Origin: an uncultured archaeon
Lineage (GTDB): Archaea; Asgardarchaeota; Thorarchaeia; Thorarchaeales; Thorarchaeaceae
Direction: 5' to 3'
DNA: 26,777 nt
NCBI GenBank assembly: GCA_964631415.1
Contig: CAZVZC010000031.1
Coordinates: 1 to 26,777, forward strand
Position numbers and translations under genes: made by a program. The notes below the pieces were generated by a model. It had not been told where the DNA came from, searched no databases, and saw only the letters and a program-made list of their open reading frames with translations. Numbering within the stretch: position 1 is the stretch's first letter; each line of letters starts with the position of its first letter. This document shows, one piece after another, positions 1,982-25,791 of the stretch.

Positions 1982-2896
1982 ATGTCACAAGTGCGGCCTG
2001 GACTGGAGATTGTTGTCGTAGGCCATCTCAGTAGGGACCTTCTAATCACACCCGATTTGACACGTGAGTCGCTGGGTGGCGGGACCGCCTATGCCATGCT
2101 TGCACCTGCCGTGGGTGCAATGGGGTCGGGAATAGTCACGCGGGTCGGACAGGATTTCAATCAGGAGTACATGAATGCTCTCAAGATGTCAGGTCTCGAT
2201 CTCACAGGACTGAGAACAAGTGGGCCTCACACTACGCGTTTTGTCAATATGTATGACGCTCAGGGTAACAGGACACAACGAGTCGAGGCCGTTGCACCCT
2301 CCCTAAGAGGAGATGATTACCTCAGTCACCATCTACACTCAACCATCTTCCATTTCTGTCCGTTAACAGCCGCGGAACTGCACCTGTCGTGCCTTGAAGT
2401 TGCAGACACGTCCGGAGCGTTTGTGTCCCTTGATGTTCAAGGATACCTCCGGGCAATAGAAGGCGACCGAGTGGTGCCTAGGAACTGGGATGAACGTGAT
2501 GAAGTTCTAAGGTACGTGGACTCGGTCAAGTTCGATGACAAGGAGCTCAAGGTCGCCTATGGGAAGATACCCGAGGCATTAGCCGTGGAGAAGATCACAA
2601 GGCTTGGCCCGAAGATCGTGATAGTGACCCGCGACCGAAGGGGATCCACGATATACACGCGCAACAGGCATACCGACATCCCTCTTGTTCTCGCGGACAA
2701 GTTCGTAGACGCCACAGGGTGCGGGGACACGTACACAGTGGGGTTCTTGCTGGAGTATATGCGGACGGGCGACATCAAGAGGGCAGGGCTGTTTGGTGCC
2801 ACCTGTGCTTCCTACAATCTGGAAACCGTAGGTCCATATGACATGCCGAGTCGCGAGCAGGTCGAGAAGCGGATGAAGCCCTACCTGTATTCGTGA
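1982..2896 (+). CDS. PfkB/ribokinase-family carbohydrate or nucleoside kinase
   Basis: N-terminal VVGHLSRD, GGG motif, RVGQDF, SLDVQG, and the C-terminal PfkB signature DATGCGDTY. Confidence 0.9.
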   Translation: MSQVRPGLEIVVVGHLSRDLLITPDLTRESLGGGTAYAMLAPAVGAMGSGIVTRVGQDFNQEYMNALKMSGLDLTGLRTSGPHTTRFVNMYDAQGNRTQRVEAVAPSLRGDDYLSHHLHSTIFHFCPLTAAELHLSCLEVADTSGAFVSLDVQGYLRAIEGDRVVPRNWDERDEVLRYVDSVKFDDKELKVAYGKIPEALAVEKITRLGPKIVIVTRDRRGSTIYTRNRHTDIPLVLADKFVDATGCGDTYTVGFLLEYMRTGDIKRAGLFGATCASYNLETVGPYDMPSREQVEKRMKPYLYS

Positions 2897-2949: not shown

Positions 2950-4134
2950 ATGCTCGATGACTTGGACCGTCTTATGGAAATCGCAGGCATTGATGCCATT
3001 GTGGCTGAAGGCAGCGCTTTCGAAGTGCCTGACATCTTCTGGATGACTGGCTTTCGTTCAACCGACTCGATAATCTGCCTCAAGAGCCGGAACGAACCCC
3101 AAGTAGTTGCTGCAGGATTCAATACCTTGGATCGCATACAAAGCGAGAGTTTCGTCAAGCGTACACATGATCTAACAGAGCTTTACATAGGACTGATGCG
3201 AGAGAACAAGAGAGCGCAGGAGAATCCCGAGATTGTCTATCGCGATGTCCTGAAGAGCCTCTTTACCGGAAAGGTCCTAGGTGTACCTGACCATATCCCT
3301 GCGAGAGTGCTTGTGGCGATCCAGAAGTTGGGTTACGATGTGAGAGTCATGCCCGACCTACTGAAGGAAGCTCGCGCAAGGAAGTCCGATGCTGAGATAA
3401 AGACCATCAGGAAGGCCGGTGATGCCACTATTGAAAGCATGACCGAGGCTTTTCAGATGATAAGGGATTCCAGCGTGGGTCCCAACAAGACACTGATCTA
3501 CAAGGGTCAACCGCTCACCGTAGGTGACTTCAAGCTGAAGCTCGAGATAGCTCTGGTCACGAGGTCTGCAGAGTCCGCTGAGGATGCAATTGTGGATGTC
3601 GGGAAGAAGGGCTTCGACTACCACTATCTTGGTGCACCACGGGACGTGCTGAAGGCAGGGGAGCCCATTATCGTCGATGTCTTTCCAAGGCTGAAGCTCG
3701 ACCGCTATGTCGCAGACATCACCCGCACTGTTGTCAAGGGTCCGATGAGCGATAGGGTCAAGAAAATGTATGATGCAGTCGCTGAGGCCAAAGCCGCCGC
3801 AGTAGACACACTCACTGATGGCGCAGTCATAGATGACGTGAACATGGCCTGCTTTCAGTCCTTGAAGGCGCATGGGTTTGATTCCAGAAGGCTCAACCCC
3901 ACTGCGACAGAGGGCATGACTCATGGTCTAGGTCATGGCATCGGTCTCGAGGTACACGAGAATCCTAACATGTACCACTATGCTGAGAAGTTCTCCGAGG
4001 GTCATGTTATCACGATTGAGCCGGGCGTCTATTTCAAGTCTGTCGGGGGAGTCCGCCTGGAGGATGACTATGTTGTGACAAAGGGCAAAGCGAAGCTGCT
4101 GACCCGGGGACTTGATGACGTGATATCAATGTGA
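2950..4134 (+). CDS. M24B Xaa-Pro aminopeptidase/prolidase family peptidase
   Basis: Metal-ligand motifs DVFP, ADITRT, HGLGHGIGLEVHE, TIEPGVY and RLEDD. Confidence 0.92.
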   Translation: MLDDLDRLMEIAGIDAIVAEGSAFEVPDIFWMTGFRSTDSIICLKSRNEPQVVAAGFNTLDRIQSESFVKRTHDLTELYIGLMRENKRAQENPEIVYRDVLKSLFTGKVLGVPDHIPARVLVAIQKLGYDVRVMPDLLKEARARKSDAEIKTIRKAGDATIESMTEAFQMIRDSSVGPNKTLIYKGQPLTVGDFKLKLEIALVTRSAESAEDAIVDVGKKGFDYHYLGAPRDVLKAGEPIIVDVFPRLKLDRYVADITRTVVKGPMSDRVKKMYDAVAEAKAAAVDTLTDGAVIDDVNMACFQSLKAHGFDSRRLNPTATEGMTHGLGHGIGLEVHENPNMYHYAEKFSEGHVITIEPGVYFKSVGGVRLEDDYVVTKGKAKLLTRGLDDVISM

Positions 4135-4149
4135 GTCGGACAGATAGTG

Positions 4150-5244
4150 TCATTCAGCACTGAGAGCATGTTCTGGACAGAGTGAGATGCAGAGTCCGCA
4201 GCCTACACACGCGGCAGTGTCAATGTTGAGGGTCTTCGCTTGACTATCCACATGCAAGGCCGAGTAGGCACATGACTTGGTACACAATCCACAGAGGGTA
4301 CATCTGTTTCTGTCCACACTGACAGGCGGCCTGAGCAAGCGTTTCTTCTTGAGATACGGCAATGCAACACCTCGGACTGACTCTACCGATGAGTAGTCAT
4401 GTGAATCGAGCCATTTGCGGATCTCCGTTGCGATTCTTCCATATACGGCAGGTCCTTCGAGTATCGCCGCAGTGCAGACTTGGACTGCAGATGCTCCGGC
4501 CATGAAGAACTCAATGGCGTCTTGACCGGTCGTGACGCCTCCTGAGGCTATGACTGGAACACTCACAGCTTGGGCAATATCTGCGACGCATCTCATGGCA
4601 ATGGGCCTGAGAGCTGCTCCACTCAACCATCCATAGCCATTCTCACTCCCCAGCACGGGACGGCATGTTTCGACATCAATCCTCAGGCATGGACCTAAGG
4701 TATTGATCGCCACTATGCCATCGACATGCGGCTCTAGGGTCTTTGCGACCTTGGCGACGTCCACTTGAGGGCTCAGCTTTGCGAACACCGGTACGGAAAC
4801 ACACTGTTTCAGGGTCTTGGCTATTTCAACATGGCCACCCACGTAGTGCGTGCTGAACTCGATGGCACTCACTCCAGCACTCTCGACCAGTGGACCGATC
4901 TTTGCCACGTCCTCAGGCGTATAGCCGATGCTCGCTATCAAGGGCAGACCTGCCGTCAGTGCTAGAGGGTACTCATGTTTGAGCCATCTCTCCAAAGGCA
5001 GCTCGCTCCAGAGCTCTGCGTTCAATAGTCCCCTCCTTGAGCCGACTCTGCCGCTCTCCACAGCAGCAATATTGGGCTTGGGCGCCTCGGCAGGCATGAT
5101 GCTGACCGTTTTCGCCACAAGGCCTCCTGCTCCACCCTTAGCAGCCTCCAGAAGCGTCGCACCGTCACGTGCCATCGGACCCGCTGCTGTCATGACCGGT
5201 GTCTTGAAGCTTAATCCGGATACCTGAACAGTAATGTCTGCCAC
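4150..5244 (-). CDS. PreA/dihydroorotate dehydrogenase-like FMN protein with C-terminal 2x[4Fe-4S] domain (non-canonical active site)
   Basis: TPVMTAAGP, AKT, GLLNAELWSE (PreA-like), AKLSP, INT, GWLSG, SGGV and GASAVQVCTA. C-terminal CTLCGLCTKSC and CVGCGLCISLCP. The usual NxSCP loop reads EFSTHY. Confidence 0.85.
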   Translation of the reverse strand: MADITVQVSGLSFKTPVMTAAGPMARDGATLLEAAKGGAGGLVAKTVSIMPAEAPKPNIAAVESGRVGSRRGLLNAELWSELPLERWLKHEYPLALTAGLPLIASIGYTPEDVAKIGPLVESAGVSAIEFSTHYVGGHVEIAKTLKQCVSVPVFAKLSPQVDVAKVAKTLEPHVDGIVAINTLGPCLRIDVETCRPVLGSENGYGWLSGAALRPIAMRCVADIAQAVSVPVIASGGVTTGQDAIEFFMAGASAVQVCTAAILEGPAVYGRIATEIRKWLDSHDYSSVESVRGVALPYLKKKRLLRPPVSVDRNRCTLCGLCTKSCAYSALHVDSQAKTLNIDTAACVGCGLCISLCPEHALSAE

Positions 5245-5299
5245 ATCAAAGGGTCATGCGGCGCCTGACATAAGAGTTCTGATGCCAGGGTCTTGCTGC

Positions 5300-7234
5300 T
5301 CATTGACTTGCCAACAGGCCTCGGTTCTCGAGGTCGCCTGCAACGGCATCCAGCTTGAGTCGGACGAGGGTTTCTTTCTTCGGGAATCCTGTTTTCAAAT
5401 CGCATCCGCGTTTAGTGTAGTACTCATCCAGCATGTAGTCTAGGTCAGGGAGACCGCCCTTTGCAGGTCCCGTCGGCATTGGCTCGGACAAGAGCCTCTT
5501 GGGAAGGGTCTCTTGTTCTCGAGTGATTCCAAGACGGTGGTTGTAGGCTCTCCTCAGGTGGCATATTCTCTCGGCAGCTTCTCTCACGAACTTCATACTG
5601 GACCACTCATCCATGCCCGTCAAAGGAGGAATCACGTTTGTGAAGGTCTCGAAATAGTAGACTGGTGGCCACATCGTACCATACTTGCATATCACAGCTG
5701 AGTCCACGAGTGCGTACAGGTCCTCGATGTCCTTGATCACCTCGCCCTTGTATATTGGCGACGTGATCTTCTTGATCTCCTCAAACTTCTCCTTGCCGAA
5801 TCTCTTGATGATCACCTCGGGATAGCCCAGTTCCTCGAGGCTTGACAGACTCCTGAGGTGGTCGGCTCCTCGTACATTCACAGCATAGGTCAGCCCTACA
5901 GACTGGTGCGCACGGGGGTCCTGTCCCGAAGCCTCAAGACCCTTGGAGTGGATTGCATACATCCAAGCATCACCCCCAATCCTCTCGGCCGCTTTTCTGG
6001 TCCCCAGTGCAAGGAGGTTTCCGATTCCCTCGCGCTTGGCAGTCATCTCTACGAGTTTCGCCATGGACTCGGCATTGCCCCAAGAGAGATCAAGACCACC
6101 GGTGTCCTTAGATGTGAGGATGCCTTTCTCCCAGAGCTCCATTAGAAACCCGATGGTCTTGCCACAGGATATGGTGTCCATCCCGAGCAGGTCACATCTC
6201 GTACCCATATAGAGCACAGATGCCAAGTCATTGTTCAGGCAGTTCGATCCGAAGGCCATGATGCTCTCATACTCGGAGCCACCAGCTGGGCCAATGGCGA
6301 ACGGCCCCTCTTTGACCCGGAAGATGTACTTGCACCCGATTGCGCAACCGTAGCAGGCCTCCTGTGCGATTCTGTACTGCTTCGAGATCGCCTCAGGTCC
6401 GATGTCATCTGCATGCTCATAGTAGCCAGTCCAATGGTTCTTCGTTGGGAGCCTGCCAATCTCGTTAATCATGGTCACGAGACCGGTGGTTCCGTACTTC
6501 CTGAGCGAGGCTATTGATTCCGTCCAGAGCGGGTCGCGCAGCTTTGCCATCTCTTGTTCATTGGCTTGGAGGTACTTGTCCATGTCATGAGCCTCAACGG
6601 CCAGTGAACCTGTCGCGGCTATCGCCTTGAGGTTCTTCGACCCCATGACTGCCCCCAGCCCCGTGCGGCCTGCTGCTCGATAGAAGTCTACTGTGATGCT
6701 CGCAAACAGCACCTGATTCTCTCCCGCTGGTCCTATCACTGCCACCTCGGTTGAGGGGTCCCTGTGTTCTTCCCGAATCATCGTTGCTGCCACGTTAGTT
6801 TCTCTGCCCCACAGGTGAGTAGCATCGCACAGCTCTGCCCTCCCATCGTTGAGGAAGAGATAGACAGGCTTGGGTGACCGTCCATGAAGGATGACTAGGT
6901 CAAACCCTGCGTACTTCATCTCAGGTCCCAAGAAACCACCCACATGGCTCTCAGCCCATATGCCGGTCAGAGGACTCTTTGAAGCGAACATCATTCTGCC
7001 TGATGGGGAGAACATTGCACCAGTGAGTGGTCCAGTAGCTGCGATGAGAACATTGTCGGGCGATAGAGGCTCTGTCTGTGGTCCAGTTCTCTCCCACAGT
7101 ATCCGGGCGCTGACGCCTGTCCCGCCGAGATAGAGTCGCGCCCATTCCTCCTCCATCTCTCTCTTGTTGACCTTCCCCTTGGTGAGGTCCACTTCGAGAT
7201 AGTGCCCAGCATATCCCTTGTAGCGGAACGGCAA
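5300..7234 (-). CDS. aor: Tungsten-containing aldehyde:ferredoxin oxidoreductase family protein
   Basis: KSPLTG, AAGRTGLGAVMGSKNLKAIA, CYGCAIGC, EYES, CDLLGMDTISCG, RGADH and DSAVICK. TTG start with GGAGG RBS, 2 nt after the stop of the ferredoxin-like gene. Confidence 0.93.
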   Translation of the reverse strand: MPFRYKGYAGHYLEVDLTKGKVNKREMEEEWARLYLGGTGVSARILWERTGPQTEPLSPDNVLIAATGPLTGAMFSPSGRMMFASKSPLTGIWAESHVGGFLGPEMKYAGFDLVILHGRSPKPVYLFLNDGRAELCDATHLWGRETNVAATMIREEHRDPSTEVAVIGPAGENQVLFASITVDFYRAAGRTGLGAVMGSKNLKAIAATGSLAVEAHDMDKYLQANEQEMAKLRDPLWTESIASLRKYGTTGLVTMINEIGRLPTKNHWTGYYEHADDIGPEAISKQYRIAQEACYGCAIGCKYIFRVKEGPFAIGPAGGSEYESIMAFGSNCLNNDLASVLYMGTRCDLLGMDTISCGKTIGFLMELWEKGILTSKDTGGLDLSWGNAESMAKLVEMTAKREGIGNLLALGTRKAAERIGGDAWMYAIHSKGLEASGQDPRAHQSVGLTYAVNVRGADHLRSLSSLEELGYPEVIIKRFGKEKFEEIKKITSPIYKGEVIKDIEDLYALVDSAVICKYGTMWPPVYYFETFTNVIPPLTGMDEWSSMKFVREAAERICHLRRAYNHRLGITREQETLPKRLLSEPMPTGPAKGGLPDLDYMLDEYYTKRGCDLKTGFPKKETLVRLKLDAVAGDLENRGLLASQ

Positions 7235-7236
7235 GT

Positions 7237-7743
7237 CTATACTTCCTCCTTCACGAGTCCATATGATGACGACAACGCCTCGATTCCGCCGTATCTCTCC
7301 CTAGCGCCATCGGGTTTGGTGGGAAGCATCACGATTGCGCCGTACGAGCATGCCTTGACACACGCAGGGTCGCCCTGACACAGATCGCATTTGATGGCCC
7401 TTCCTGTCGGCGGGTCCATCACTATTCCACCATAGATGCAGGCTGCCATACAGTCCTTGCATCCGATACACGATTCATCGTCGACAACCAGTATCTCCTT
7501 GGAGTTCTCTGCTATCGCACGGGTCGGACAAGATTCGGCACACAGGGGTTTCTCACACTGAAGACAGACCACTGGCAGTATCATGTTTCTGACCTCATCC
7601 TTGAGCACTTGGACTCTCGATCTGCGAGGGTTGAATGTCCCCGTGTGCACCGCGGAACAGGCGAGTTCGCAGTTTCGACAGCCTGTACATCGTTTGGTGT
7701 CAATAGCAAGGATGCTCTTCAAATGGACCGAACTCTCCATCAA
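7237..7743 (-). CDS. 4x[4Fe-4S] dicluster-domain protein (DmsB/HydN/CooF-like), probable AOR electron-transfer subunit
   Basis: CTGCRNCELAC, CLQCEKPLCAESCP, CIGCKDCMAAC and KCDLCQGDPACVKAC. Confidence 0.92.
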   Translation of the reverse strand: MMESSVHLKSILAIDTKRCTGCRNCELACSAVHTGTFNPRRSRVQVLKDEVRNMILPVVCLQCEKPLCAESCPTRAIAENSKEILVVDDESCIGCKDCMAACIYGGIVMDPPTGRAIKCDLCQGDPACVKACSYGAIVMLPTKPDGARERYGGIEALSSSYGLVKEEV

Positions 7744-7912
7744 CTCTGTTCGTGGACCCTCTGGACTGACGTACGGCCATTTAAGTTGTTGTCATTGTGA
7801 CCTTGTACTCATCACGACAAAGTATTAGAGGAACAGAACGGTTCTGCGTCTAGCGCCAGCTCGTCTTTCAGGCAAGCGCGCCTGTAAAACAGCCCTGTCA
7901 GTTGAGACACCG
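7744..7912. promoter_or_regulatory. Divergent promoter region between the AOR operon and the histidine kinase
   Basis: TTTAAG at 7780-7785 (CTTAAA on minus), AAAGTATTA at about 7819-7827, and the palindrome CAGAAC-G-GTTCTG at 7834-7846. Confidence 0.45.
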
Positions 7913-9700
7913 ATGAAGTCTTCAGAGAGCTTTGGGCCTCGCGACCGTGCACAATTCAGGCGAGTCGCAGAGGAGATGCCAATCGCGGTCGTTGAGCTTG
8001 ATACTGAGCTGAAGGTCGTATACGCGAATCAGTACACTCTGAATCTCCTAGGTCTTACACAAGTCGACATTGAGGCTGGAGTCCACGCGGAAGAGCTTGT
8101 CGCACCCGAGCAGGTTGGCATGATTCACGAGGGGTTGAAGCAACTCGCTACGGGTGCAAAGCCGACATCTGTTTCGCTGAGACTGCTGCGACAGAAACAA
8201 ATCCAAGTCCTCACAGAAACCTTTGCTCAGCGGTTGATGTCCGGAGGGAAGTTGACCGGGTTCTTGGTCTATGGTTTTGACTTGTCGCGTCGTGCAGTTG
8301 TGCAAGACAAGATGCGAGATCAGATGGACCTGTTTCAGATGATCATCGAACATGCTTACGCGGGCATATGTGTGATAGATGGCGAGTACCACGTCGAGTA
8401 TGCAAATGACAGACTGTGCGACATAACGGGGCGGACTAGGACCGAGATACTGGGGCATGACTTCAGGGATTTTCTGCACCCGAGCAGTGTGGATATCGTG
8501 TCAGACAGATACAGAAGAAGGCAGAATGGAGAGAGCGTTCCGCCAGTCTATGATATCAAGGTGCTAACCAAGGAAGGCGTGGTCCGCGAGGTAAGACTCA
8601 GCAGCCGCACCATGACGAGCCGCGGTGGTCAGGTCAAGACAGTGGCACAGGCTATCGACATAACAAGCGAGAAGGAAAAGGAGAAGCAACTGCAAGAGAG
8701 CGAACACCGGTATCGTACTCTCGTAGAAACAATGGACTCGGGCTTTGGTGTCGACGACGATAGTGGTACGTTGGTGCTTGTGAATGCTGCTCTATGCAGA
8801 ATGTTGGGCTATGAATCGGTTGATGAGCTGGTCGGCCGACCGTTCTACGAGATTGTGCAGGGTTGGTCGAAGGAAAATGCCGACGAGAAGAGGAAGGCAC
8901 GTCGGGAAGGTCGGTTCGAGCACTATGAGGTAGAGCTCATCCACAAATCCGGCGGTCTTATCCCTGCCATGATATCGGCATCACCATTGTTTGATTCGAC
9001 TGGGAAGTACATTGGCAGCTTTGGCATCTTCACAGATGTGTCAGAGCTGAAGAGTGCGGAAGAGGAGGCACACTTCCTCTTGGACCTCCTGCTCCACGAC
9101 ATTGGAAACCAACTTCAGCTCATTTTGGCAGGAGCAGACCTTCTTGACACGCGACATTCCACTCCGGAGGTTCAGAGCGCAAGGCGTTATGTCACTGAAG
9201 GCGCAAACCGGTGCATCGAGCTGATAACCAAGGTCAGGAGAGCTGAAGAAGCGAAATCGGAGCCCTTGGTCGTCGTGGACTTGATTGATGTCATCATGCC
9301 GGAAATCACGCTGCTCTCAAAGCAGTATCATCTGGAGCCCGAGGTGGGGCCGCTGCCTGACAAACTTTTGATTCAGGCTGACAGTGCTCTCAACCATCTG
9401 CTCTGGAACTTGATGGAGAATGGCGTGAAGCATAACCAGAACGACAACAGACGCCTCTGGATAACAGGTGAGCGCACTGGCGACACCTACGAACTGAGGA
9501 TTGCTGACAATGGTCCTGGCCTGTCTGACTCGATGAAGCGGCAGCTCTTTGACCCCAAACGCCGGTATGGTGGAGTCGGTCTGCACCTTGTTCACAGACT
9601 TGCAGACAAGTATGGAGCTTGGATTGAGGTAAGAGACAGGATTGAAGGCAGCCCTGACCAAGGGCTCGAAGTCCGCATCCGCTTTCTTGTTGCGTCGTGA
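7913..9700 (+). CDS. Soluble sensor histidine kinase with three PAS domains
   Basis: Three PAS repeats (VVYANQ, VEYANDRLCDITG, LVNAALCRMLGY with PAC-like ends). H-box LLHDIGNQL, N-box NLMENGVKH, DNGPGL, GGVGL. No TM or receiver domain. Confidence 0.92.
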   Translation: MKSSESFGPRDRAQFRRVAEEMPIAVVELDTELKVVYANQYTLNLLGLTQVDIEAGVHAEELVAPEQVGMIHEGLKQLATGAKPTSVSLRLLRQKQIQVLTETFAQRLMSGGKLTGFLVYGFDLSRRAVVQDKMRDQMDLFQMIIEHAYAGICVIDGEYHVEYANDRLCDITGRTRTEILGHDFRDFLHPSSVDIVSDRYRRRQNGESVPPVYDIKVLTKEGVVREVRLSSRTMTSRGGQVKTVAQAIDITSEKEKEKQLQESEHRYRTLVETMDSGFGVDDDSGTLVLVNAALCRMLGYESVDELVGRPFYEIVQGWSKENADEKRKARREGRFEHYEVELIHKSGGLIPAMISASPLFDSTGKYIGSFGIFTDVSELKSAEEEAHFLLDLLLHDIGNQLQLILAGADLLDTRHSTPEVQSARRYVTEGANRCIELITKVRRAEEAKSEPLVVVDLIDVIMPEITLLSKQYHLEPEVGPLPDKLLIQADSALNHLLWNLMENGVKHNQNDNRRLWITGERTGDTYELRIADNGPGLSDSMKRQLFDPKRRYGGVGLHLVHRLADKYGAWIEVRDRIEGSPDQGLEVRIRFLVAS

Positions 9701-9730: not shown

Positions 9731-11170
9731 GTGGGTTGGTTTGGCTCGAGAACGCAGACGAGGTCTTGTGGATTGCCGACGAGTCCATCCATCTTGATAA
9801 AGAACGGCTACATACTCACTATGAACTCCCAGCGTCAGATCATCCGTGATGGCGCAGTGCTGGTGCAGGAAGGGAAGATAGATCGCGTTGGCGAGATGAG
9901 TGACCTGAAGGACGCCAAGGCCGACACTGTGCTTGATGCTCGAAACATGGTAGTCCTACCCGGGCTCATTGACACTCACGTACATCTCGCTCAGGCTCTC
10001 ATCCGCGGCTGTGCAGATGACGTGTCGCTTCTGGACTGGTTGAAGAACTACGTATGGGTCCTTCAGGGTAACTTCACGAAGGATGATGGCAGGGTTTCAG
10101 CTGAGCTGTGCATGGCCGAGATGATAAAGACGGGTACGACGTCATTCATCGAGTGCATGATTCATACGCGGTACGGCTTCGACGGGATTGCCAAGGCTGT
10201 AGAAAAAGCGGGTATGCGTGCCGCGTTGTCAAAGATAGTGATGGACTCCACAGGCTACGCAGACAGCCCTGGCATAATGTATCCTGGGATGGTTGAGGAC
10301 TCGGAGGACTGCCTCAGAGAAACCGAATCGATGTACGCAAAATGGCATGGCAAGGCCAACGGGCGCATTCAGGTCTGGTATGGTCTCCGCTCACTTGGTG
10401 CGGTGAGTCCCAGCCTCTTCAAGGAAGTGACGAGCAGGGCGAGAGTCCAGAGAACTCGGATGACGATGCATCTCGGTGAGGTAGTTGACGACGTTCGATA
10501 TGTCAGAGAGAAGAAGTACAAGAGCCTGACAGCATTTGCCCGCGAAATGGGGCTGCTCGGTCCTGACATGGTATTTGCGCACGGCGTACACTTCGACGAA
10601 TCAGACCTGATAACGCTGGCAGAAACGCAGACCAATGTTTCGCACTGTCCAGCCAGTAACATGAAGCTCGCTTCGGGGTTTGCGAGAGTACCTGACATGC
10701 TCCGACTCAGGGTGCCGGTTTCTCTGGGGTGCGATGGCGGACCAAGCAACAACACATACGACATGGTCCGGGAGATGCGCCTAGCGGCCCTTGTTCACAA
10801 GCCCGTCGCACAGAGCCCAACGGTTGTTAACGCGGAGCAGGTCCTTGAGATGGCCACGATTGGCGGTGCCGTCGCAATGGGTATTCAAGAGAAGGTCGGG
10901 TCTCTAGAGCCGGGGAAGCTCGCTGATATCATTCTGATTGACATGAGAGATATTGGGCTCACACCGCTTCCGAACCCTGTTTCGAATCTTGTCTACGCAG
11001 GTTCTGGCAGACATGTGGACACAGTGATAGTCAACGGCCGCGTGCTTATGAGAGAAAAGCGCCTGTTGACCCTGAACGAGTCAGAAATCATGAAGGACGC
11101 GAATGGCCGCTTGGCAGCTCTGCTGGAGCGGTCAGGAGTGCATGTGGGCCCCAAGTGGCCTGTCAGCTGA
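9731..11170 (+). CDS. Metal-dependent amidohydrolase, TrzA/AtzA/MtaD/SsnA family (nucleoside or heterocycle deaminase)
   Basis: PGLIDTHVHLAQ, MHLGE, AHGVH, HCPASNMKLASG, LGCDG and GSLEPGKLAD. The true start may be about 14 codons downstream (TTG near 9773). Confidence 0.9.
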   Translation: MGWFGSRTQTRSCGLPTSPSILIKNGYILTMNSQRQIIRDGAVLVQEGKIDRVGEMSDLKDAKADTVLDARNMVVLPGLIDTHVHLAQALIRGCADDVSLLDWLKNYVWVLQGNFTKDDGRVSAELCMAEMIKTGTTSFIECMIHTRYGFDGIAKAVEKAGMRAALSKIVMDSTGYADSPGIMYPGMVEDSEDCLRETESMYAKWHGKANGRIQVWYGLRSLGAVSPSLFKEVTSRARVQRTRMTMHLGEVVDDVRYVREKKYKSLTAFAREMGLLGPDMVFAHGVHFDESDLITLAETQTNVSHCPASNMKLASGFARVPDMLRLRVPVSLGCDGGPSNNTYDMVREMRLAALVHKPVAQSPTVVNAEQVLEMATIGGAVAMGIQEKVGSLEPGKLADIILIDMRDIGLTPLPNPVSNLVYAGSGRHVDTVIVNGRVLMREKRLLTLNESEIMKDANGRLAALLERSGVHVGPKWPVS

Positions 11171-11190: not shown

Positions 11191-12399
11191 CTAACTGATT
11201 ATTGCCTCTCTCTCAAACAGCTTGGCTCCGATAATCAGAAAGACAACAGTGAACCCCAGCATGTAGAGGACATTGAAAAGCAGGCTAGCAGGGGTGGCGA
11301 CACCGGAAAGCACACCATTAAGAAAAACGATTGCGTGACTGAATGGGACCGCCATGACAATGAACCCGAACACGCCTCCATACTGGAGGATGCTGCCCGT
11401 GAATCCAAGCATTCCGATGACCATGGTGGGAAGAAGTAGGACCATATTGTTGATAGACTCAGCGGTGGCCTGGTCCTTTGCGAGGCATGATATGACGACG
11501 CCTATGCCGATTGCGCAGAGTAGGATGAGAAACTGACAGAAGAAGATGAGCGGCAGGGTCGCAACGTTCACCGTGTAGAGACCGATGTAGTAGCTAGCCG
11601 CCTCCGCCGGAAAGGATGACACTCTAGCTATGATTGACCAGTTGTATGTCAGTATGCCGACGATTGTGAAGACCGAATAGAGCATCGTTAGTACAAGCCC
11701 TGCCACGAGCTTTGAGGCGAGAATCTTGATTCTGCTCATAGGGACGACAAGCAGGGCCTCCAGTGTATGTTTCTCCCTCTCTCCCGCGAACGATTGGCTC
11801 ACATACGGAGCCGGCGCGAGGACCGAAGTCAACATGACGAGGAAGATGGCCAGCTGGTGACCATAAGTGGCCTCTGGCGCGATGGTGTACCAGTTGACTT
11901 GGAGGTTTCTTATCACTTTGATCTCATCTATCACTCCTCGAGCGAAGGTGTCAATCCTCTGTGCAGCTGCAGTCGCCCGGAAATTGCCTGTGTTTACATA
12001 TATGACAAGTGTACTCTGATTCTGAGTCAAGAGCTCTTGCGTGAAATTCTCCGGTATCAAGACCCATACTGACAAGGATCTGTTCGCAACGAGATTGTTT
12101 CCGTCTGATTCTGTGACATTTACGAGCGGGTCAATGAGCAGGTTGGTCACATTAGCTTCTATCTCGTCGAAGAGAGTCTGTCCCCAAACCCCTTGGTCTT
12201 CCAACGTAATGTAGACCTTTTCTGATTCCTCAGTGGTCTGGGCCACAATAAAGGAGAGAAATGCTCCTTGGAAGAGCCAAGCGAACATTGGGCTGATTAT
12301 GAAGCCAAAGAGCAACCACTTGGATCTCAGTACTGTCTTGACCTCTTTTTTCAGCATCCAGACAGTCTTCGTATCAATCTTCAAGGGACTTACCACCAA
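11191..12399 (-). CDS. ABC-2 exporter permease (NatB/YhgE-like, large extracellular loop)
   Basis: N-terminal TM, an extracellular loop of about 130 aa, GEREKHTLEALLVVPMSRIKILASKL, then 5 further TMs. Confidence 0.88.
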   Translation of the reverse strand: MVVSPLKIDTKTVWMLKKEVKTVLRSKWLLFGFIISPMFAWLFQGAFLSFIVAQTTEESEKVYITLEDQGVWGQTLFDEIEANVTNLLIDPLVNVTESDGNNLVANRSLSVWVLIPENFTQELLTQNQSTLVIYVNTGNFRATAAAQRIDTFARGVIDEIKVIRNLQVNWYTIAPEATYGHQLAIFLVMLTSVLAPAPYVSQSFAGEREKHTLEALLVVPMSRIKILASKLVAGLVLTMLYSVFTIVGILTYNWSIIARVSSFPAEAASYYIGLYTVNVATLPLIFFCQFLILLCAIGIGVVISCLAKDQATAESINNMVLLLPTMVIGMLGFTGSILQYGGVFGFIVMAVPFSHAIVFLNGVLSGVATPASLLFNVLYMLGFTVVFLIIGAKLFEREAIIS

Positions 12400-12476
12400 A
12401 GTGGGGTTTCAACAGATTTCGGGTGGTAGCGAGCATCGGTATGTCCCGATAACGTTTGCGTTCCCTATCACTCGTC

Positions 12477-13832
12477 CTAGTGCATAAGAGTGAGAATCCT
12501 GTCTGTGACTTTCTCAAACACTTCAGAGGCAGCTCGGCCGATTGGCCCTCTCTTTCGAAGCAGATGCTGGGCAATGCCCTTGTTCTGGGCGAAGCGCAAC
12601 TTCATTTGAGTGAAGTTGGTGGTGAACAGCAGGTCATGTCGTCCGGCTGCCCCTCTCTGCTTTCTCCACTCTGGCCTGCTGATTCTCTTCTGCACCTTGG
12701 AATAGAGACCTGTGCCGAAGATCGGATACGGGAAGGAGTACGACAAGTAATCCAGAGGCAATCGAGACGAGAAATGCAGTGTTTCCAGCAATGAGCTATC
12801 GGTTTCGCCCGGGTAGCCCAAGATGAAGAACCCTCCTGTTTCGATTCCTGCCGATTTGGCCGCGCCCACGGCCGTTTCTGCATCCCTTAGTACTATCTTC
12901 TTGTTCATGATTCTCAGCATACCCTCGCTGCCCGACTCAATTCCAAAGAAGACCCGGACGCACCCCGCCCTCCTCATTCTCTTCGCGAGGGCTGCTCCCA
13001 ACCTGTCTGCACGGCTCAGACACATCCATTCCAGGTCAATCCCCTCGTCTGCAATCAGGTCGCATATCTGCTCTACTCTCTGTGGGTTCTGGGTGAAACA
13101 GTCGTCTGTGAAGAAGACTCGATCATAGCCCAATCGTTTGATCTCTAACATCTCCCCGATTACGTTAGGGGCAGATCGTTCCCTGTAGCTTCTGCCAAAC
13201 ACGGGGTTGCTGCAGAAATCGCACAAGTAAGGGCAGCCACGTGTTGTGATTTGACTCGTGGCAGTGTATCCATGGTATTTCTTCCAGTACTTCATGTAGG
13301 CTCGGTTTGGAAACATATCCCGAGCAGGGAAGGGGATGGCGTCTAGGTCGCTCGCGAACGGGCGGCTCTTGTTCGTGGAAATGCCATGTCCATCATTGAC
13401 GAAGGTGATGCCACCAATGTCGTTCCAAGGCTGGTTGTTCAGGTGGCGCGTGACAAGATCAAGAAAGGTCTGTTCACCCTCGTTGTGAACGACAGCATCA
13501 AAGATGTCCAAGAAGCTCTCTGGAACAAGTGTGGGTAGAGGGCCGCCTGCAACAAGCAGCTCAGCCGTTTCCCTCAGCTCCTTGGCCAAGGCAATCGCGT
13601 GATGGTTGATTGTGACCATGGAGTAGATGCCCACTATGCGAGGGTGCTGGTTCCGAACGGCTGACACCACATTCTCGAAACGTGAGAAGGTGCAGTCGAA
13701 CAGGCTTACAGACACACCTGCCTGTCTGAGAACAGATGCTAGATACCCCAATCCAAGTGGCGGATATCGGAAGATTGAACGGTCTAGTTCCTCATTGAAG
13801 TATGGATAAACAAGGACTACTTCGGTCATCAT
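12477..13832 (-). CDS. B12-binding domain radical SAM protein (class B methyltransferase-like)
   Basis: N-terminal YPPLGLGYLAS, GGPLPT and NEGE B12-binding region. TTRGCPYLCDFC (CxxxCxxC), FTDDCF, FGIESGS and FILGYPGET. Confidence 0.92.
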   Translation of the reverse strand: MMTEVVLVYPYFNEELDRSIFRYPPLGLGYLASVLRQAGVSVSLFDCTFSRFENVVSAVRNQHPRIVGIYSMVTINHHAIALAKELRETAELLVAGGPLPTLVPESFLDIFDAVVHNEGEQTFLDLVTRHLNNQPWNDIGGITFVNDGHGISTNKSRPFASDLDAIPFPARDMFPNRAYMKYWKKYHGYTATSQITTRGCPYLCDFCSNPVFGRSYRERSAPNVIGEMLEIKRLGYDRVFFTDDCFTQNPQRVEQICDLIADEGIDLEWMCLSRADRLGAALAKRMRRAGCVRVFFGIESGSEGMLRIMNKKIVLRDAETAVGAAKSAGIETGGFFILGYPGETDSSLLETLHFSSRLPLDYLSYSFPYPIFGTGLYSKVQKRISRPEWRKQRGAAGRHDLLFTTNFTQMKLRFAQNKGIAQHLLRKRGPIGRAASEVFEKVTDRILTLMH

Positions 13833-13911
13833 CCACCCATCTAGGAATCTGTACTATTCCTTGCGACTCCGGTTCAGTGCAAGACTATTCTGACACATTC
13901 ATTCCCCACAT

Positions 13912-14796
13912 TTATGGGCGGCGGTACGTATGCGCTGTTTCTTGAATCAGTTCTTTCAAGGAACCAAAACGCATCACGTACTGTATGCTCTTCGCTGACG
14001 GGCTCGCACAGAGTATGATGCCGCTCCAAGAGATGTCACTACCAATCGTTTCCCTGCCACGGAATGCAGAGCATGTTTCGGGAATCTCAATACGAAAGCC
14101 GACTCCGTGAGCAGGTGCATAGAGCATAGCCCATGTTGCATTCACCTTAGCCCAAGGTGTGATCTCGTCAGCATGTAGTCTGAGCCCGCTGCTGTCGATG
14201 TAAAGAGTGAAAGCTCGGGCACCGACCTCGTTTGAGATGTATATGCGCTCTAGGCCCTTCCGAACGACGTCTTCGAAGTCCATCGTTACGACTGTCTGTT
14301 TCTTACAAACATCTAGGTCATAGGTCACACGCACCATTCCGCGGCCGCGAATGCGAATGAACCGCTGGACTGGAGGTTCAAGCCCGGGTCTTCGTTCCAT
14401 ACCGAGCTTCTCAGAGGCTTGAACAATGAGTCTTCCAGGACCTGCCTTGTAGAGCCGGTTGAAGATGCGAGGGAAGACCCATGAGAACATCCCGAGATTT
14501 TTCTCATCACGCCTTCCTCTGCGTTCAATCAGGTCAAACTGGAACTGCTTCCACCAGACACCGGTTGTCAGCTCTCCATGCGCAGCGACGGTCGACGAAC
14601 CTGGGAACAGGAAATCTCGAGCATACTGTAGGATGGGAAGTCCGAAACCAACACCCTCCTCACACAGGTCGGCACCACCATCTACTTGGCTAATGATGAG
14701 GCCTTTCTGCACAGGTGAGGACTTTCCATGATAGGGCTGAGTGCCTCTGTAGAGGAAGTACCGTAGGAGCGTGACAGTGCCAGAAGCCCCCGCCAA
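13912..14796 (-). CDS. Hypothetical soluble protein, probably beta-rich
   Basis: 294-aa ORF filling the space between co-oriented genes. TTG start preceded by AGGAGAG. Contains the motif EEGVGFGLPILQY. Confidence 0.75.
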   Translation of the reverse strand: MAGASGTVTLLRYFLYRGTQPYHGKSSPVQKGLIISQVDGGADLCEEGVGFGLPILQYARDFLFPGSSTVAAHGELTTGVWWKQFQFDLIERRGRRDEKNLGMFSWVFPRIFNRLYKAGPGRLIVQASEKLGMERRPGLEPPVQRFIRIRGRGMVRVTYDLDVCKKQTVVTMDFEDVVRKGLERIYISNEVGARAFTLYIDSSGLRLHADEITPWAKVNATWAMLYAPAHGVGFRIEIPETCSAFRGRETIGSDISWSGIILCASPSAKSIQYVMRFGSLKELIQETAHTYRRP

Positions 14797-14894
14797 GCCG
14801 AGTCTCTCCTATGTGACCCCAACACCGAATCGGTACCCACAATGACATGAGGTCCTGCAAACCGGGATTGTTTCGTGCAACACAACTCAACCCC

Positions 14895-15662
14895 CTACTC
14901 CTTGTAGACGCCTTCGCCTGTGACCAGACCCGTGAATACTTCCTCGAGATTCGCTGCCTTGAACTTCATCTCAAGTTCGCTCGGCTTGCCCACTGCGACG
15001 AGCCGACCATTGTTCAGGATTCCCACCCTGTGACACAGCTCTGAAACCTCGTTCAAGTCGTGAGTAGTCAGAATAATGGTCTGCTTTCTCTCAGAACTGA
15101 GTTTCTTGAGGAGATTCCTGACAACCCGTGCGCCAATCGTATCTATGCCTGTCGTGGGCTCATCCAAGAAGACTATCTCCGGCTCGACTATCAGTGCTCT
15201 GGCCACCAACACCTTTCTCTTCATTCCACCGCTGAAACCCTTGACTTGGTAGTCCTGCTTCTCGGTCAGTCCAACGATCTCAAGTAACGAATCGGCGCGC
15301 CGCTGCAGTTCATCGTTTGGAATCCCGTAGAGCCCACCATAGTATACAAGGTTCTCACGGGCAGTCAGCCTCTCGTATGCTCCCGCCTCCTGAGGTAGCA
15401 GTGCCACCCTAGGACGGATGTAGTCGATATTCTCTACGACGTCTTTTCCGAGGACATAGGCCTTGCCAGAGGTTGGGGTCAGCAGTCCGACTAGGACACG
15501 AATCAGGGTGGTCTTTCCTGCACCATTTGGGCCGAGCAGCCCAAAGACCTCCCCTCTGCCAATCTCAACGCTCACATCATCAAGTGCGACAACCTCGCGC
15601 CTTCTGCCCTTCTCGAATATCTTCGTGAGCTGTTCGGTCTTGATGACTATCTCGTCGGACAC
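14895..15662 (-). CDS. ABC transporter ATP-binding protein (ABC-2/NatA/CcmA-like)
   Basis: Walker A GPNGAGKTT, signature FSGGM, Walker B IVFLDEPTTG, H-loop TTH. GTG 15662 follows an AGGAGG RBS and is preferred over ATG 15704. Confidence 0.95.
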   Translation of the reverse strand: MSDEIVIKTEQLTKIFEKGRRREVVALDDVSVEIGRGEVFGLLGPNGAGKTTLIRVLVGLLTPTSGKAYVLGKDVVENIDYIRPRVALLPQEAGAYERLTARENLVYYGGLYGIPNDELQRRADSLLEIVGLTEKQDYQVKGFSGGMKRKVLVARALIVEPEIVFLDEPTTGIDTIGARVVRNLLKKLSSERKQTIILTTHDLNEVSELCHRVGILNNGRLVAVGKPSELEMKFKAANLEEVFTGLVTGEGVYKE

Positions 15663-15700
15663 ACTGAGTCCTCCTAGGAAGGCAATGTCACTACTCCTTA

Positions 15701-16471
15701 TCATGCAACATTCTTAATCTCTGGGAAGGGTGGCTCTCCTTTAATCTTCGACAGCAGAAAATCATGTGCTTCACCAATGCGTGTGTCATCTCCTTCTACG
15801 AAGAGAGTCACTGCCCCCTCGGCACCGTTGACGCCTCCAGCTGCAATCGGCGTTGCGCTCACACCAAACAGGGCATCGAGTGCATCCACCTCCGTGAACG
15901 GAATAGCTTCGGGGACCGCTATGGCACCGACAGGCATACCGATGGCATAATCCCAGTCTGTCATTCCAAACTGGCGGCTGAAAGATTCGTATGGCACCGG
16001 GATACACTTCTCAAGACCAACAGGCATCACAATTGTCACGTTCTTCGCTGCGGCGGCACCCAAGAATGATCCGATTGAGCCGCCAGTCGGACTCGCCAGC
16101 AGTATGACGGGCACTAGGTTGATGTCCAGAGCATTGGCACTCTTGACAATCACGTCGCCCGCCTGAAGCTCTCCGAGCATGTCGACCACCTTCTTACTGC
16201 TGATGTACTGTCCCTTGTGGAAGATCGCATCATATGAACGGGTTTCTCGCATTACGACAGAGGTACCCTTCGGAACAACAACTCCTGCTACATGTTTCGT
16301 CTTGTCGTAGGAACCGAGAATCTCCTCAACAAGGTAAGAGGATGTCGTGCCCAGAGTCACGCAGAGGTAGCCATTCTTCAGTGCGTTGCGGACTGCGTCG
16401 GTGGCCAGAAGGCCTTTTGCGATTAGTCTCTTACCCTCCGCAGGGGTCAGTGTCACAAGGAGCTTCTTCAT
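15701..16471 (-). CDS. Conserved hypothetical alpha/beta protein (possibly NagB/RpiA/CoA-transferase-like fold)
   Basis: Motifs LTPAEGKRLIAKG, GTTSSY, GDVIVKSANALD, GGSIG, PVGLEK, TEVDAL and AAGGVNGAEG look like a conserved uncharacterised family. The fold is inferred. Confidence 0.75.
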   Translation of the reverse strand: MKKLLVTLTPAEGKRLIAKGLLATDAVRNALKNGYLCVTLGTTSSYLVEEILGSYDKTKHVAGVVVPKGTSVVMRETRSYDAIFHKGQYISSKKVVDMLGELQAGDVIVKSANALDINLVPVILLASPTGGSIGSFLGAAAAKNVTIVMPVGLEKCIPVPYESFSRQFGMTDWDYAIGMPVGAIAVPEAIPFTEVDALDALFGVSATPIAAGGVNGAEGAVTLFVEGDDTRIGEAHDFLLSKIKGEPPFPEIKNVA

Positions 16472-16585: not shown

Positions 16586-17629
16586 TTGGCTGCTATCCAC
16601 GAAGTCTATTACGGACGCTGGCCTGACAATGTTGCGGTGTCCATGAGAAAAGTCACACCACAGATTCTCGGCCGGGCAGGTATTGCCGAAATCCTCCAGA
16701 CTGCTGGCTCCTTCATGCAACATGGCTTCGGCGACCTGCCCCCGGACATACATCTGCCGGCGCTTGTTGGCACGGCGTTGCACAACGCTCCATCCTCAGA
16801 CTCGACTGTTGCTCATGCTGCCGCAGCGCGGCTGGGCTCTTCACTTGTGGAGTTCCCTCTTCAGGAGAAGCAAGCCATGATGTCCGAGGAGGTACTTGAG
16901 CGCCTCGCCGGTTTTAGCTCGATCGTCGACATCGTGTTGGCCGCATATGTGGACTATGAAACCTTTGGAGCGGGTCGCATGCTGACTGAGAGCTTCCCTG
17001 AATGGACTCACTCACCGCTGCTGTCCTTACGGGACGACGTTTACGCTCATCAGTCGGCGCTGGCAGAGCTTCTCGGGCTCTCTGCCAGAATGGGTGGTCT
17101 GGAGAACCGCCGAATCGCAGTATCATGGGGTTTTGGCTCGGCATTTGGGCTGCCTACCACCGCACATAGCCTAATCCTCACGGCACTCATCATGGGTGCG
17201 AGTCTGCGAGTCGTTGCGCCCGACAAGTTCTCGCTCCTAAGACGAGTCATGAGGGAAGGGGCCAAAGTTGCGAACTCAGCAGGCGGGCAACTCGAAGAGG
17301 TGCATGAGTTCGAGGGTTCCTTTCGTGACGTTGACGCTGTCTTTGCTCTCAACTGGTGCAGACTGGACGACTTCAATCATCCTGAGAGAAATCCCCAGTA
17401 TGCGTCAGAGTTCAGAGACTGGTACTTCACATCCGAAATACTACCCAGCGGTTGCGCCTTCGCAACAGAACCCCCAATGCAGACAGAATTGATGGCGAGC
17501 AAGGAACTCCTATGCGGTCCTACAAGCTTGGCAACGACTTGGCTTGGTCGGCGAATAGCAGTCCTAGCTGCAACAATCGTCTGGATGGCTCAGAGAGCTG
17601 CTGCTGACGACCGCGTTGTGTTAGTCTAG
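16586..17629 (+). CDS. YgeW/ornithine carbamoyltransferase-fold protein with degenerate catalytic motifs
   Basis: RRIAVSWGF..AFGLP, MGASLRVVAPDKF, FRDVDAVFALNW and DWYFT align by eye with YgeW-type transcarbamylases. STRT reads SSDS and HCLP reads TEPP. Start is TTG 16586 or ATG 16643. Confidence 0.75.
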   Translation: MAAIHEVYYGRWPDNVAVSMRKVTPQILGRAGIAEILQTAGSFMQHGFGDLPPDIHLPALVGTALHNAPSSDSTVAHAAAARLGSSLVEFPLQEKQAMMSEEVLERLAGFSSIVDIVLAAYVDYETFGAGRMLTESFPEWTHSPLLSLRDDVYAHQSALAELLGLSARMGGLENRRIAVSWGFGSAFGLPTTAHSLILTALIMGASLRVVAPDKFSLLRRVMREGAKVANSAGGQLEEVHEFEGSFRDVDAVFALNWCRLDDFNHPERNPQYASEFRDWYFTSEILPSGCAFATEPPMQTELMASKELLCGPTSLATTWLGRRIAVLAATIVWMAQRAAADDRVVLV

Positions 17630-18911: not shown

Positions 18912-19151
18912 ATGTGCCTAGCAGTCCCCGGTCTGGTCAAGAGCATTGATGGCGAGTACGCCGACGTAGACTTTGGAGGAGTCAGGAAGAGGGTCTGTGT
19001 GACACTGTTGCCAGAATTGGAAGTGGGAGAGTACGTCATAGTCCACACGGGCTATGCCATTGAACGTCTTAGGGCAGAAGAGGCCAAGAAGACTCTGGAC
19101 CTCTTCGAGCAGATGGCCCAGTTAGCAGAAAGGAATGCGCGAGGCGCATAG
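18912..19151 (+). CDS. hypC: Hydrogenase maturation chaperone HypC/HupF
   Basis: Canonical MCLAVP N-terminus (ATG 18912), VDFGGV and VGEYVIVHTGYAI. Confidence 0.95.
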   Translation: MCLAVPGLVKSIDGEYADVDFGGVRKRVCVTLLPELEVGEYVIVHTGYAIERLRAEEAKKTLDLFEQMAQLAERNARGA

Positions 19152-19203
19152 GCAGCGCCAACAAGCCTTTTTGCTCGCGACACACTGGGCGGAGGTGACG
19201 ACC

Positions 19204-20067: not shown

Positions 20068-20181
20068 GCTTCGAGTGGAAGGCGCTCGTCGACTTCTGCA
20101 CCAGCTTCATAACTTGCTTGTTTCACGTGGTGAACTGCTCAATGCTGTGTCTGGGTAGTCTGAAATGGAGGACCCGGCTAG

Positions 20182-20886: not shown

Positions 20887-20900
20887 GGGGAGATGTCGGA

Positions 20901-23039: not shown

Positions 23040-23146
23040 GGCATAGCAGAACCCTGCCACAACTTCGAGATTTTTCAGTCTGGGTGTATCTCAGCAAATC
23101 ACTTAATAGTGATAGAAGCCGGACCCACTTGTTCAGCCCAGAGTTC

Positions 23147-25687: not shown

Positions 25688-25791
25688 CTGACTCCTACGC
25701 GAATCATGAAGCACATTCAAAAGGGTTTCCTTGGTCAGGACTATCGTTTCACTCCTCTGATATCTTTACAACTGACACAGAGAATAGGGAG

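Follow-up and report, generated by a model that had tools for sequence, protein, structure and literature searches.

A conserved polyferredoxin, tungstoenzyme and flavoprotein operon of Thorarchaeota as a possible redox core of anaerobic purine-type ring degradation

Tungstoenzymes of the aldehyde oxidoreductase (AOR) family interconvert aldehydes and acids, reduce benzoyl-CoA and, as a more recent addition, act in sulfonate chemistry. We describe here an operon in which a gene for an enzyme of this family stands between genes for an iron-sulfur (Fe-S) protein and a PreA-like flavoprotein, at positions 4150 to 7743 of a 26,777-nucleotide contig from an uncultured archaeon of the Thorarchaeaceae (CAZVZC010000031.1, our contig C31; the whole stretch is referred to as the window). 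The source genome (GCA_964631415.1) comprises 2.16 Mb in 81 contigs and is an estimated 85% complete; close homologues of the window proteins carry the label Thorarchaeota. Two described systems are closest to the flavoprotein and its surroundings. PydAc of Clostridium chromiireducens is a ferredoxin-dependent, PreT-less dihydropyrimidine dehydrogenase with two ferredoxin domains (PMC7332683). In the reductive uric acid and 2,8-dioxopurine pathway of E. coli and Clostridia, described in 2025, XdhD makes isoxanthine, YgfK or the PreT-less UacX performs the dearomatization, and SsnA and HyuA open the rings; the genes of its cluster are those for XdhD-YgfM or XdhAC, YgfK or UacX, SsnA, HyuA, YgeW, YqeA, YgeY and YgeX, and UacX with SsnA constitutes a PreT-less, ferredoxin-dependent ring reductase (bioRxiv 10.1101/2025.05.19.654654). 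Judged by sequence comparison, the archaeal operon may be the redox core of a variant of anaerobic reductive purine-type ring degradation, a proposition for which we consider the balance to be about even.

The three genes are co-oriented on the minus strand and encode the Fe-S protein (7743..7237, 168 aa), the AOR (7234..5300, 644 aa) and the flavoprotein (5244..4150, 364 aa), with gaps of 2 nt between the first two and 55 nt between the last two. These open reading frame coordinates agree with the arrangement given in a preliminary description of the stretch, which had also stated that neither PreT nor PyrK is encoded in the window, and the Pfam domains of the window genes indeed show neither; no gene with a flavin adenine dinucleotide (FAD) or NAD domain, of the kind found in AorC-type subunits, was detected in the window with Pfam. 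None of the three operon proteins reached an NCBIfam equivalog cut-off. The Fe-S protein (7237..7743, minus strand), which matched Fer4_11 and related Pfam families, is by homology an AorA-like polyferredoxin subunit: it carries 16 Cys in Fer4_11-type motifs, enough for four [4Fe-4S] clusters and all invariant in 14 orthologues, and its best solved relative was AorA of Aromatoleum aromaticum (8c0z_C, E = 4.6e-34).

The AOR gene product (5300..7234, minus strand) was assigned as a catalytic subunit with a predicted W-bis-pyranopterin and [4Fe-4S] cofactor set, on scores of 252 bits for AFOR_N and 394 bits for AFOR_C (Pfam cut-offs 29.8 and 27, respectively). Its best solved relatives were AorB (8c0z_A, E = 7e-126) and the Pyrococcus furiosus AOR (PfAOR; 1aor, E = 1.5e-121), and BamB was the most distant (E = 2.4e-68), a comparison on which ring reduction of the BamB type by the tungsten (W) enzyme was rejected. 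The four Cys ligands of the [4Fe-4S] cluster (PfAOR C288, C291, C295 and C494) were kept, as aligned in the CYGCAIGC and VICKY segments, and so were the second-shell residues T243, E313 and H448, while Y427 was replaced by Gln. Tyr427 is listed as the fourth conserved second-shell residue in the reviewed AORs, only two of which show a single conservative substitution (PMC12096430).

The flavoprotein (4150..5244, minus strand) was classified as a PreA/UacX-like TIM-barrel protein binding flavin mononucleotide (FMN), with a DHO_dh domain (PF01180, 127 bits) followed by one C-terminal 2x[4Fe-4S] ferredoxin domain (Pfam Fer4). An AlphaFold2 model (pLDDT, the predicted local distance difference test, 82) matched pig dihydropyrimidine dehydrogenase (DPD) best and then the class 1B dihydroorotate dehydrogenase (DHODB). 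On alignment with the DHODB of Lactococcus lactis, the segment holding the catalytic Cys ('scpnvk') fell in a gap; the ELNxSCP catalytic loop of PreA and DPD is shortened to E-F-S-T-H-Y, the loop to which the preliminary description had drawn attention. N75, N181-T182 and K156, the counterparts of the Asn, Asn-Thr and Lys that bind substrate or FMN, were kept and were invariant in the orthologues.

These features make it highly improbable that the protein is a conventional subunit of a dihydropyrimidine or dihydroorotate dehydrogenase served by a distant PreT or PyrK, with the AOR next to it by accident. It shares the DHO_dh domain with such enzymes, and its best NCBIfam matches were indeed the PyrD and PreA models, but at 177 bits (cut-off 269) and 167 bits (cut-off 335) it fell below every cut-off, its catalytic Cys loop is deleted, and its linkage to an AOR is kept across phyla, as shown below. 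A canonical PyrD-PyrK pair was found on contig C8 of the source genome and, together with the low PyrD score, led us to reject a biosynthetic dihydroorotate dehydrogenase (DHOD) role. As for a PreT encoded elsewhere, which the preliminary description had named among the findings that would tell against its reading, the only GltD-like genes of the source genome, at its 85% completeness, were located on C78 and on C19, the latter adjacent to a gene for a PyrK-like protein in an NfnAB-like arrangement, and neither of them in a fitting context. The premise behind that concern, that a PreA needs its PreT, is not a general rule: PydAc and UacX are PreT-less, ferredoxin-dependent relatives. A complex prediction for the Fe-S subunit and the flavoprotein returned a score of 0.00 with no answer and is not taken as evidence on binding in either direction.

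Among species-representative genomes, 80 loci were found to encode flavoprotein relatives at 45-68% identity. The archaeal loci came from Thor-, Hermod-, Baldr- and Heimdallarchaeota, Bathyarchaeia, Thermoproteota (including metagenome-assembled genomes, MAGs, labeled 'Kor'), Nitrososphaeria-labeled MAGs, Geothermarchaeota, Hadarchaeota, Desulfurococcales and Undinarchaeota, and the bacterial ones from Anaerolineae isolates, Coprothermobacterota and Bacillota. The contiguous Fe-S/AOR/flavoprotein triad was present in 32 of the 80, mostly with gaps below 30 nt or with overlaps, in Asgard archaea, Thermoproteota, Bathyarchaeia, Nitrososphaeria-labeled MAGs, Coprothermobacterota and Bacillota. 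An AOR gene was located at most 3 kb from the flavoprotein gene in 42 loci, a related amidohydrolase accompanied it in 56, and a frequent order was Fe-S, AOR, flavoprotein, Fe-S, AOR, cyclic amidohydrolase, AOR. The arrangement recurs with overlaps or very short gaps in many phyla and goes far beyond what chance would produce. A sample of the source phylum (301 genomes, 30 families) was also screened, whose members are related and not independent, so that the counts describe a pattern and not a statistic: in the family of the source genome the flavoprotein orthologue was found in 72 of 76 genomes and the AOR orthologue in 71 of 76, and at the thresholds used both were confined to the same four of the 30 families. 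The synteny survey suggested in the preliminary description has therefore come out strongly in favor of a conserved linkage. The whole neighborhood was common to Thorarchaeota and a Lokiarchaeota-labeled MAG, its order being DadD-like amidohydrolase, PAS kinase, triad, M24 peptidase, PfkB kinase and then a second module (MoaD-like protein, allantoinase/hydantoinase-type amidohydrolase, Fe-S protein and second AOR). Two Hadarchaeota genomes (G301 and G302, loci L166 and L167) carried in addition a second, diverged operon that encodes, in a different gene order, a PreA-like protein at 37% identity together with an Fe-S subunit and an AOR of the Gln type.

The AOR subunits of these loci were compared in a tree of 48 sequences, 41 of them cluster-associated and the others paralogues from the source genome and two other loci. 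All 41 cluster-associated AORs had Gln at the position of Tyr427 and formed one clade with three old subclades, and the paralogues outside the cluster had Tyr, His, Val or Phe at this position. Subclade A, which includes the AOR of the operon, was encoded directly upstream of the flavoprotein gene, and subclade C, in other phyla, directly downstream of it. Subclade B was linked to MoaD and an allantoinase/hydantoinase-type amidohydrolase (for example C16:93-1949 of the source genome and L019:13488-15371), and nearly all its members had Asp in place of the first cluster Cys (PfAOR Cys288). Residues that further distinguish the Gln427 clade include a His where PfAOR has Asn93 and, within an insertion confined to the clade, an Arg. 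The source genome encodes about nine AOR-family paralogues in its 2.16 Mb.

The neighbors of the flavoprotein gene in other lineages connect it with heterocycle degradation. L075 is an archaeal locus that contains a histone gene and whose amidohydrolases are closest to those of the Hadarchaeota loci. Here the flavoprotein gene (54-55% identity) follows one for an SsnA-like amidohydrolase (411 bits, cut-off 444), flanked by genes for an amidohydrolase of the dihydroorotase/allantoinase/hydantoinase type, XdhC, molybdenum (Mo) cofactor synthesis and molybdate transport, MoaD, and an XdhA-like Mo enzyme with its FAD subunit. Mo enzymes of the xanthine dehydrogenase (XDH) type stood beside the SsnA-like/flavoprotein core only in L075 and L136, and none of the 80 loci held an AOR together with XDH or XdhC. 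In a Coprothermobacterota operon (L112) the triad is followed by genes for a CysK/SbnA-like pyridoxal phosphate (PLP) enzyme, a YgeY-family hydrolase (410.7 bits, cut-off 321.5), an ornithine carbamoyltransferase (OTC), a DadD-like deaminase (595 bits, cut-off 522) and a major facilitator superfamily transporter. A Thermoproteota locus (L119) had a PnrA-type nucleoside-binding ABC (ATP-binding cassette) transporter and a YgeY-like M20 peptidase by the cluster. In a Nitrososphaeria-labeled one (L105) the flavoprotein gene was surrounded by two OTC-like genes, genes for hydantoinase-type and SsnA-like amidohydrolases, and three Fe-S/AOR pairs. The flavoprotein gene was linked to SsnA-like and cyclic amidohydrolases also where no AOR was nearby, as in Hadarchaeota, Desulfurococcales, Undinarchaeota and one Asgard family. 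As far as homology can assign them, the neighbors across lineages are the gene set of the bacterial reductive urate and 2,8-dioxopurine pathway. The preliminary description had read the operon as a W/Fe-S/FMN module for a pyrimidine- or purine-like ring and had mentioned BamB among the tungstoenzymes of the family; the link to a heterocycle gained substance from the SsnA-like, hydantoinase-type, DadD-like, OTC-like, YgeY and PnrA neighbors and from the XdhA-like enzyme of L075, but chemistry like that of BamB now appears unlikely.

The same context bears on a more general explanation, in which the operon serves AorABC-like aldehyde detoxification, the PreA-like protein being an exit module to NAD(P)+ or another soluble cofactor and the amidohydrolases being unrelated. 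The relationship to AorA and AorB and the location of the third gene in the aorC position agree with this, and the loss of the catalytic Cys could mean that ring-reducing chemistry has been lost; yet the flavoprotein is linked to ring amidohydrolases also where AORs are missing from its surroundings, it keeps the substrate-binding Asn75 and Asn181-Thr182, and no NAD(P)-binding site is known on a DHOD fold in this arrangement. We regard this explanation as improbable.

For the proposed purine-type redox core, the following mechanism can be envisaged. The Fe-S protein, the AOR and the flavoprotein would associate as AorABC do, with the flavoprotein in the place of AorC, an arrangement that would give AorAB-type enzymes a new third subunit. 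Seven [4Fe-4S] clusters would bridge the tungsten and FMN sites, a link by which the ring-reducing flavoprotein would have no need of an NAD(P)H module such as PreT or PyrK. A C=C bond in an oxo-N-heterocycle would be reduced at the FMN site, where the Asn and Asn-Thr residues that contact the lactam edge in DHOD and DPD are retained. The STHY loop would supply a proton donor, His133 or Tyr134, in place of the missing Cys, and the SsnA-like and hydantoinase-type amidohydrolases would then open the reduced ring or rings. The W enzyme of the Gln427 clade would most likely take the place of the bacterial Mo(/Se) hydroxylase XdhD/DOPDH, hydroxylating or dehydroxylating the purine and exchanging electrons with the flavoprotein over the Fe-S wire. 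We put forward more tentatively that the Gln427-clade AORs in general are hydroxylases or dehydroxylases of purines (N-heterocycles) with W-bis-pyranopterin, and that the polyferredoxins form a shared all-[4Fe-4S] bus balancing their electrons with dearomatization of the ring at FMN; the upper purine pathway would then run with neither NAD(P)H nor free ferredoxin. A heterocycle is favored as the substrate at tungsten because the known pathway has no aldehyde, because the cluster is accompanied by two or three paralogous AOR modules, because the second shell of the clade is altered, and because a Mo hydroxylase adjoins the same core in one lineage.

The main alternative, which we consider less likely, is that an ordinary AOR oxidizes an aldehyde and that its very low-potential electrons, passed through the polyferredoxin to the flavoprotein, pull an otherwise unfavorable dearomatization of the heterocycle; the acid/aldehyde couple lies near -580 mV, and the aldehyde could be a semialdehyde of the pathway (for example from transaminated beta-alanine or diaminopropionate) or could come from fermentation. 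In its favor, the enzyme retains every cluster ligand and three of the four second-shell residues, and among solved structures it is closest to broad-range AORs. The extended Pyd pathway yields malonic semialdehyde (PMC7332683), and isoxanthine reduction by YgfK alone was undetectable, for which its authors suggested unfavorable thermodynamics (bioRxiv 10.1101/2025.05.19.654654). The XDH family, represented next to the core in L075, likewise includes aldehyde oxidoreductases, and a subclade C paralogue of the source genome is encoded in an operon with a class IV aminotransferase (see below). Against this explanation, the known reductive purine pathway passes through no aldehyde intermediate and ends in pyruvate via YgeX, a single aldehyde would hardly account for operons that combine ring hydrolases with two or three paralogous AOR/Fe-S pairs, and the change of Tyr427 to Gln throughout the clade suggests an altered substrate. 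The preliminary description had named both alternatives, aldehyde oxidation that drives ring reduction and a W enzyme acting on the ring itself, and the sequences are compatible with either.

Several observations weigh against the purine-type redox core, for which the support is all comparative. To our knowledge, no enzyme of the AOR family acts on a heterocycle, and with Thr243, Glu313 and His448 retained and the nearest relatives being broad-spectrum aldehyde oxidoreductases, aldehyde chemistry is the default expectation. The third Gln427 paralogue of the source genome, a subclade C enzyme, is encoded on contig C2 (71855-75407, L073) in an operon with a class IV aminotransferase and an Fe-S subunit beside two glutamate dehydrogenase genes, a setting that fits an aldehyde role. 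Some flavoprotein orthologues stand alone, as in Levilinea saccharolytica (neighbors GH31, WD40 and glutamine synthetase). In Hadarchaeota, several XDH-family genes occur in the same genomes as the Gln-type AOR module and the SsnA-like/flavoprotein/XdhC cluster; a clean displacement of Mo by W was thus rejected as too simple. No XDH-family match (PF02738) was obtained in the 85% complete source genome, which speaks for the proposal. At that completeness the source genome also gave no YgeX (best score 27.5 bits), no YgeY (best 135 bits against a cut-off of 321.5) and no carbamate kinase; its SsnA-like homologue (51% identity to that of L075) is unclustered on contig C53, its OTC-like gene is very divergent, and the only amidohydrolase near the triad in the window is the DadD-like one. 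The assembly lacks the hydantoinase and Fe-S part of the second module, and contig C16 begins with the AOR of that module, which suggests a contig break. Given these gaps in the gene set, the Thorarchaeota version may cover only the upper pathway, or may act on a different heterocycle.

Within the window, the operon is separated from a divergent gene for a PAS-domain histidine kinase (7913..9700, plus strand; Pfam) by an intergenic region (7744..7912) that was read from the sequence and presumably houses promoters, with a TTAAAT element about 40 nt upstream of an ATG at 7740. This ATG, one codon inside the TTG at 7743, is probably the start of the Fe-S gene. The divergent location of the PAS kinase gene was kept in L017, L018, L019, L065, L067 and L068 and in most of the Thorarchaeota loci with flanking DNA, and the protein may be a sensor or regulator of substrate or redox state; no response regulator was found in the window. 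The next gene (9731..11170, plus strand) encodes a COG0402-type amidohydrolase closest in NCBIfam to the DadD 5'-deoxyadenosine/adenosine-type deaminases (419.7 bits, cut-off 522), with 213.9 bits for SsnA. Its orthologue (about 50% identity) adjoins the triad in Hermodarchaeota and is near the flavoprotein gene in a Heimdallarchaeota-labeled locus, and the protein is a probable purine deaminase feeding the pathway. On the other side, two further neighbors are conserved in Thorarchaeota: an M24 metallopeptidase gene (2950..4134, plus strand; Peptidase_M24), convergent with the flavoprotein gene and 15 nt away, whose product is a candidate ureido or amide hydrolase, and a gene for a PfkB-family sugar or nucleoside kinase (1982..2896, plus strand), with weak NCBIfam matches to ribose-1-phosphate and nucleoside kinases. 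A divergent OTC/YgeW-like protein of the carbamoyltransferase fold (16586..17629, plus strand; Pfam OTCace 31 bits, NCBIfam scores far below the cut-offs) is a possible distal member of the gene set, and its weak homologues adjoin the SsnA-like/flavoprotein cluster in Hermodarchaeota, Desulfurococcales and Nitrososphaeria-labeled loci.

The window also contained a B12-binding radical SAM gene and two genes for proteins with no Pfam match, located between ABC-2 permease and ABC ATPase genes (11191-16471, minus strand), and an unrelated glycan-assembly cluster (19135-26775; a nucleotidyl transferase, glycosyltransferases (GT) of the GT2, GT87-like GT-C and GT4 types, the last in two copies, and a MOP flippase). 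The ABC-2 permease and radical SAM genes were also observed near the cluster in other Thorarchaeota loci. Among distant relatives of the flavoprotein, a short-loop protein from an archaeal MAG (P0143, locus L077; 38% identity, motif 'IEVVSY') is encoded beside a nitroreductase, CofD and CofC (F420 biosynthesis), and this branch may serve a different function. Two cultured Anaerolineae, Levilinea saccharolytica (L138) and Leptolinea tardivitalis (L153), have stand-alone flavoprotein orthologues at 47-48% identity with neither AOR nor amidohydrolase genes among their neighbors, and could be tractable sources for biochemistry.

Neither an AOR/PreA-like module nor the presence of AORs in purine/SsnA clusters is described in the literature searched, which was incomplete. 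If the proposed purine-type redox core is correct, a dedicated clade in purine-ring degradation would add a reaction class to the AOR-family tungstoenzymes and provide a tungsten counterpart to the XDH-type molybdoenzymes, and nucleobase use with no Mo/Se enzyme would be explained in sediment archaea (Asgard archaea, Bathyarchaeia, Korarchaeia-type Thermoproteota and Hadarchaeota) and in some anaerobic bacteria, and a function would be assigned to some of their numerous AOR paralogues. Apart from this, the flavoprotein belongs to a large, uncharacterized Cys-less branch of the DHOD/DPD family, with 267 cluster representatives at E <= 1e-30.

Compared with AorABC of A. aromaticum (8c0z) and the similar Moorella thermoacetica AOR, the operon has the same polyferredoxin and W-pterin/[4Fe-4S] subunits in the same gene order and a third redox subunit directly downstream, but this third subunit is PreA-like, with FMN and 2x[4Fe-4S], whereas AorC binds FAD and NAD; in addition, Gln replaces Tyr427 throughout the clade, and the context is one of N-heterocycle hydrolases, where that of AorABC is aromatic catabolism. 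With PydAc and E. coli PreA, the flavoprotein shares an FMN TIM barrel with a C-terminal 2x[4Fe-4S] domain and the lack of an FAD/NADPH domain, and a low-potential electron supply is expected for it as well. It has one ferredoxin domain instead of the two of PydAc, the extra polyferredoxin being a separate gene, and differs from both proteins in its EFSTHY sequence in place of the ELNxSCP loop and in a score under the NCBIfam PreA cut-off; its likeness to UacX and PydAc was judged by architecture and published descriptions, and adjacency to SsnA-like and hydantoinase-type amidohydrolase genes was seen in the loci of its relatives. As in the cluster of the reductive purine pathway, a PreT-less FMN/Fe-S protein is encoded, in relatives of the operon, beside SsnA-like and hydantoinase-type amidohydrolases, with OTC-like, YgeY-family and PLP-enzyme genes in some lineages. 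Unlike that cluster, one to three AOR/polyferredoxin pairs are found where the bacterial Mo(/Se) hydroxylase stands, the flavoprotein has no catalytic Cys loop, and in the Thorarchaeota version M24, PfkB and PAS-kinase neighbors are present instead of detectable YgeX, YgeY and carbamate kinase.

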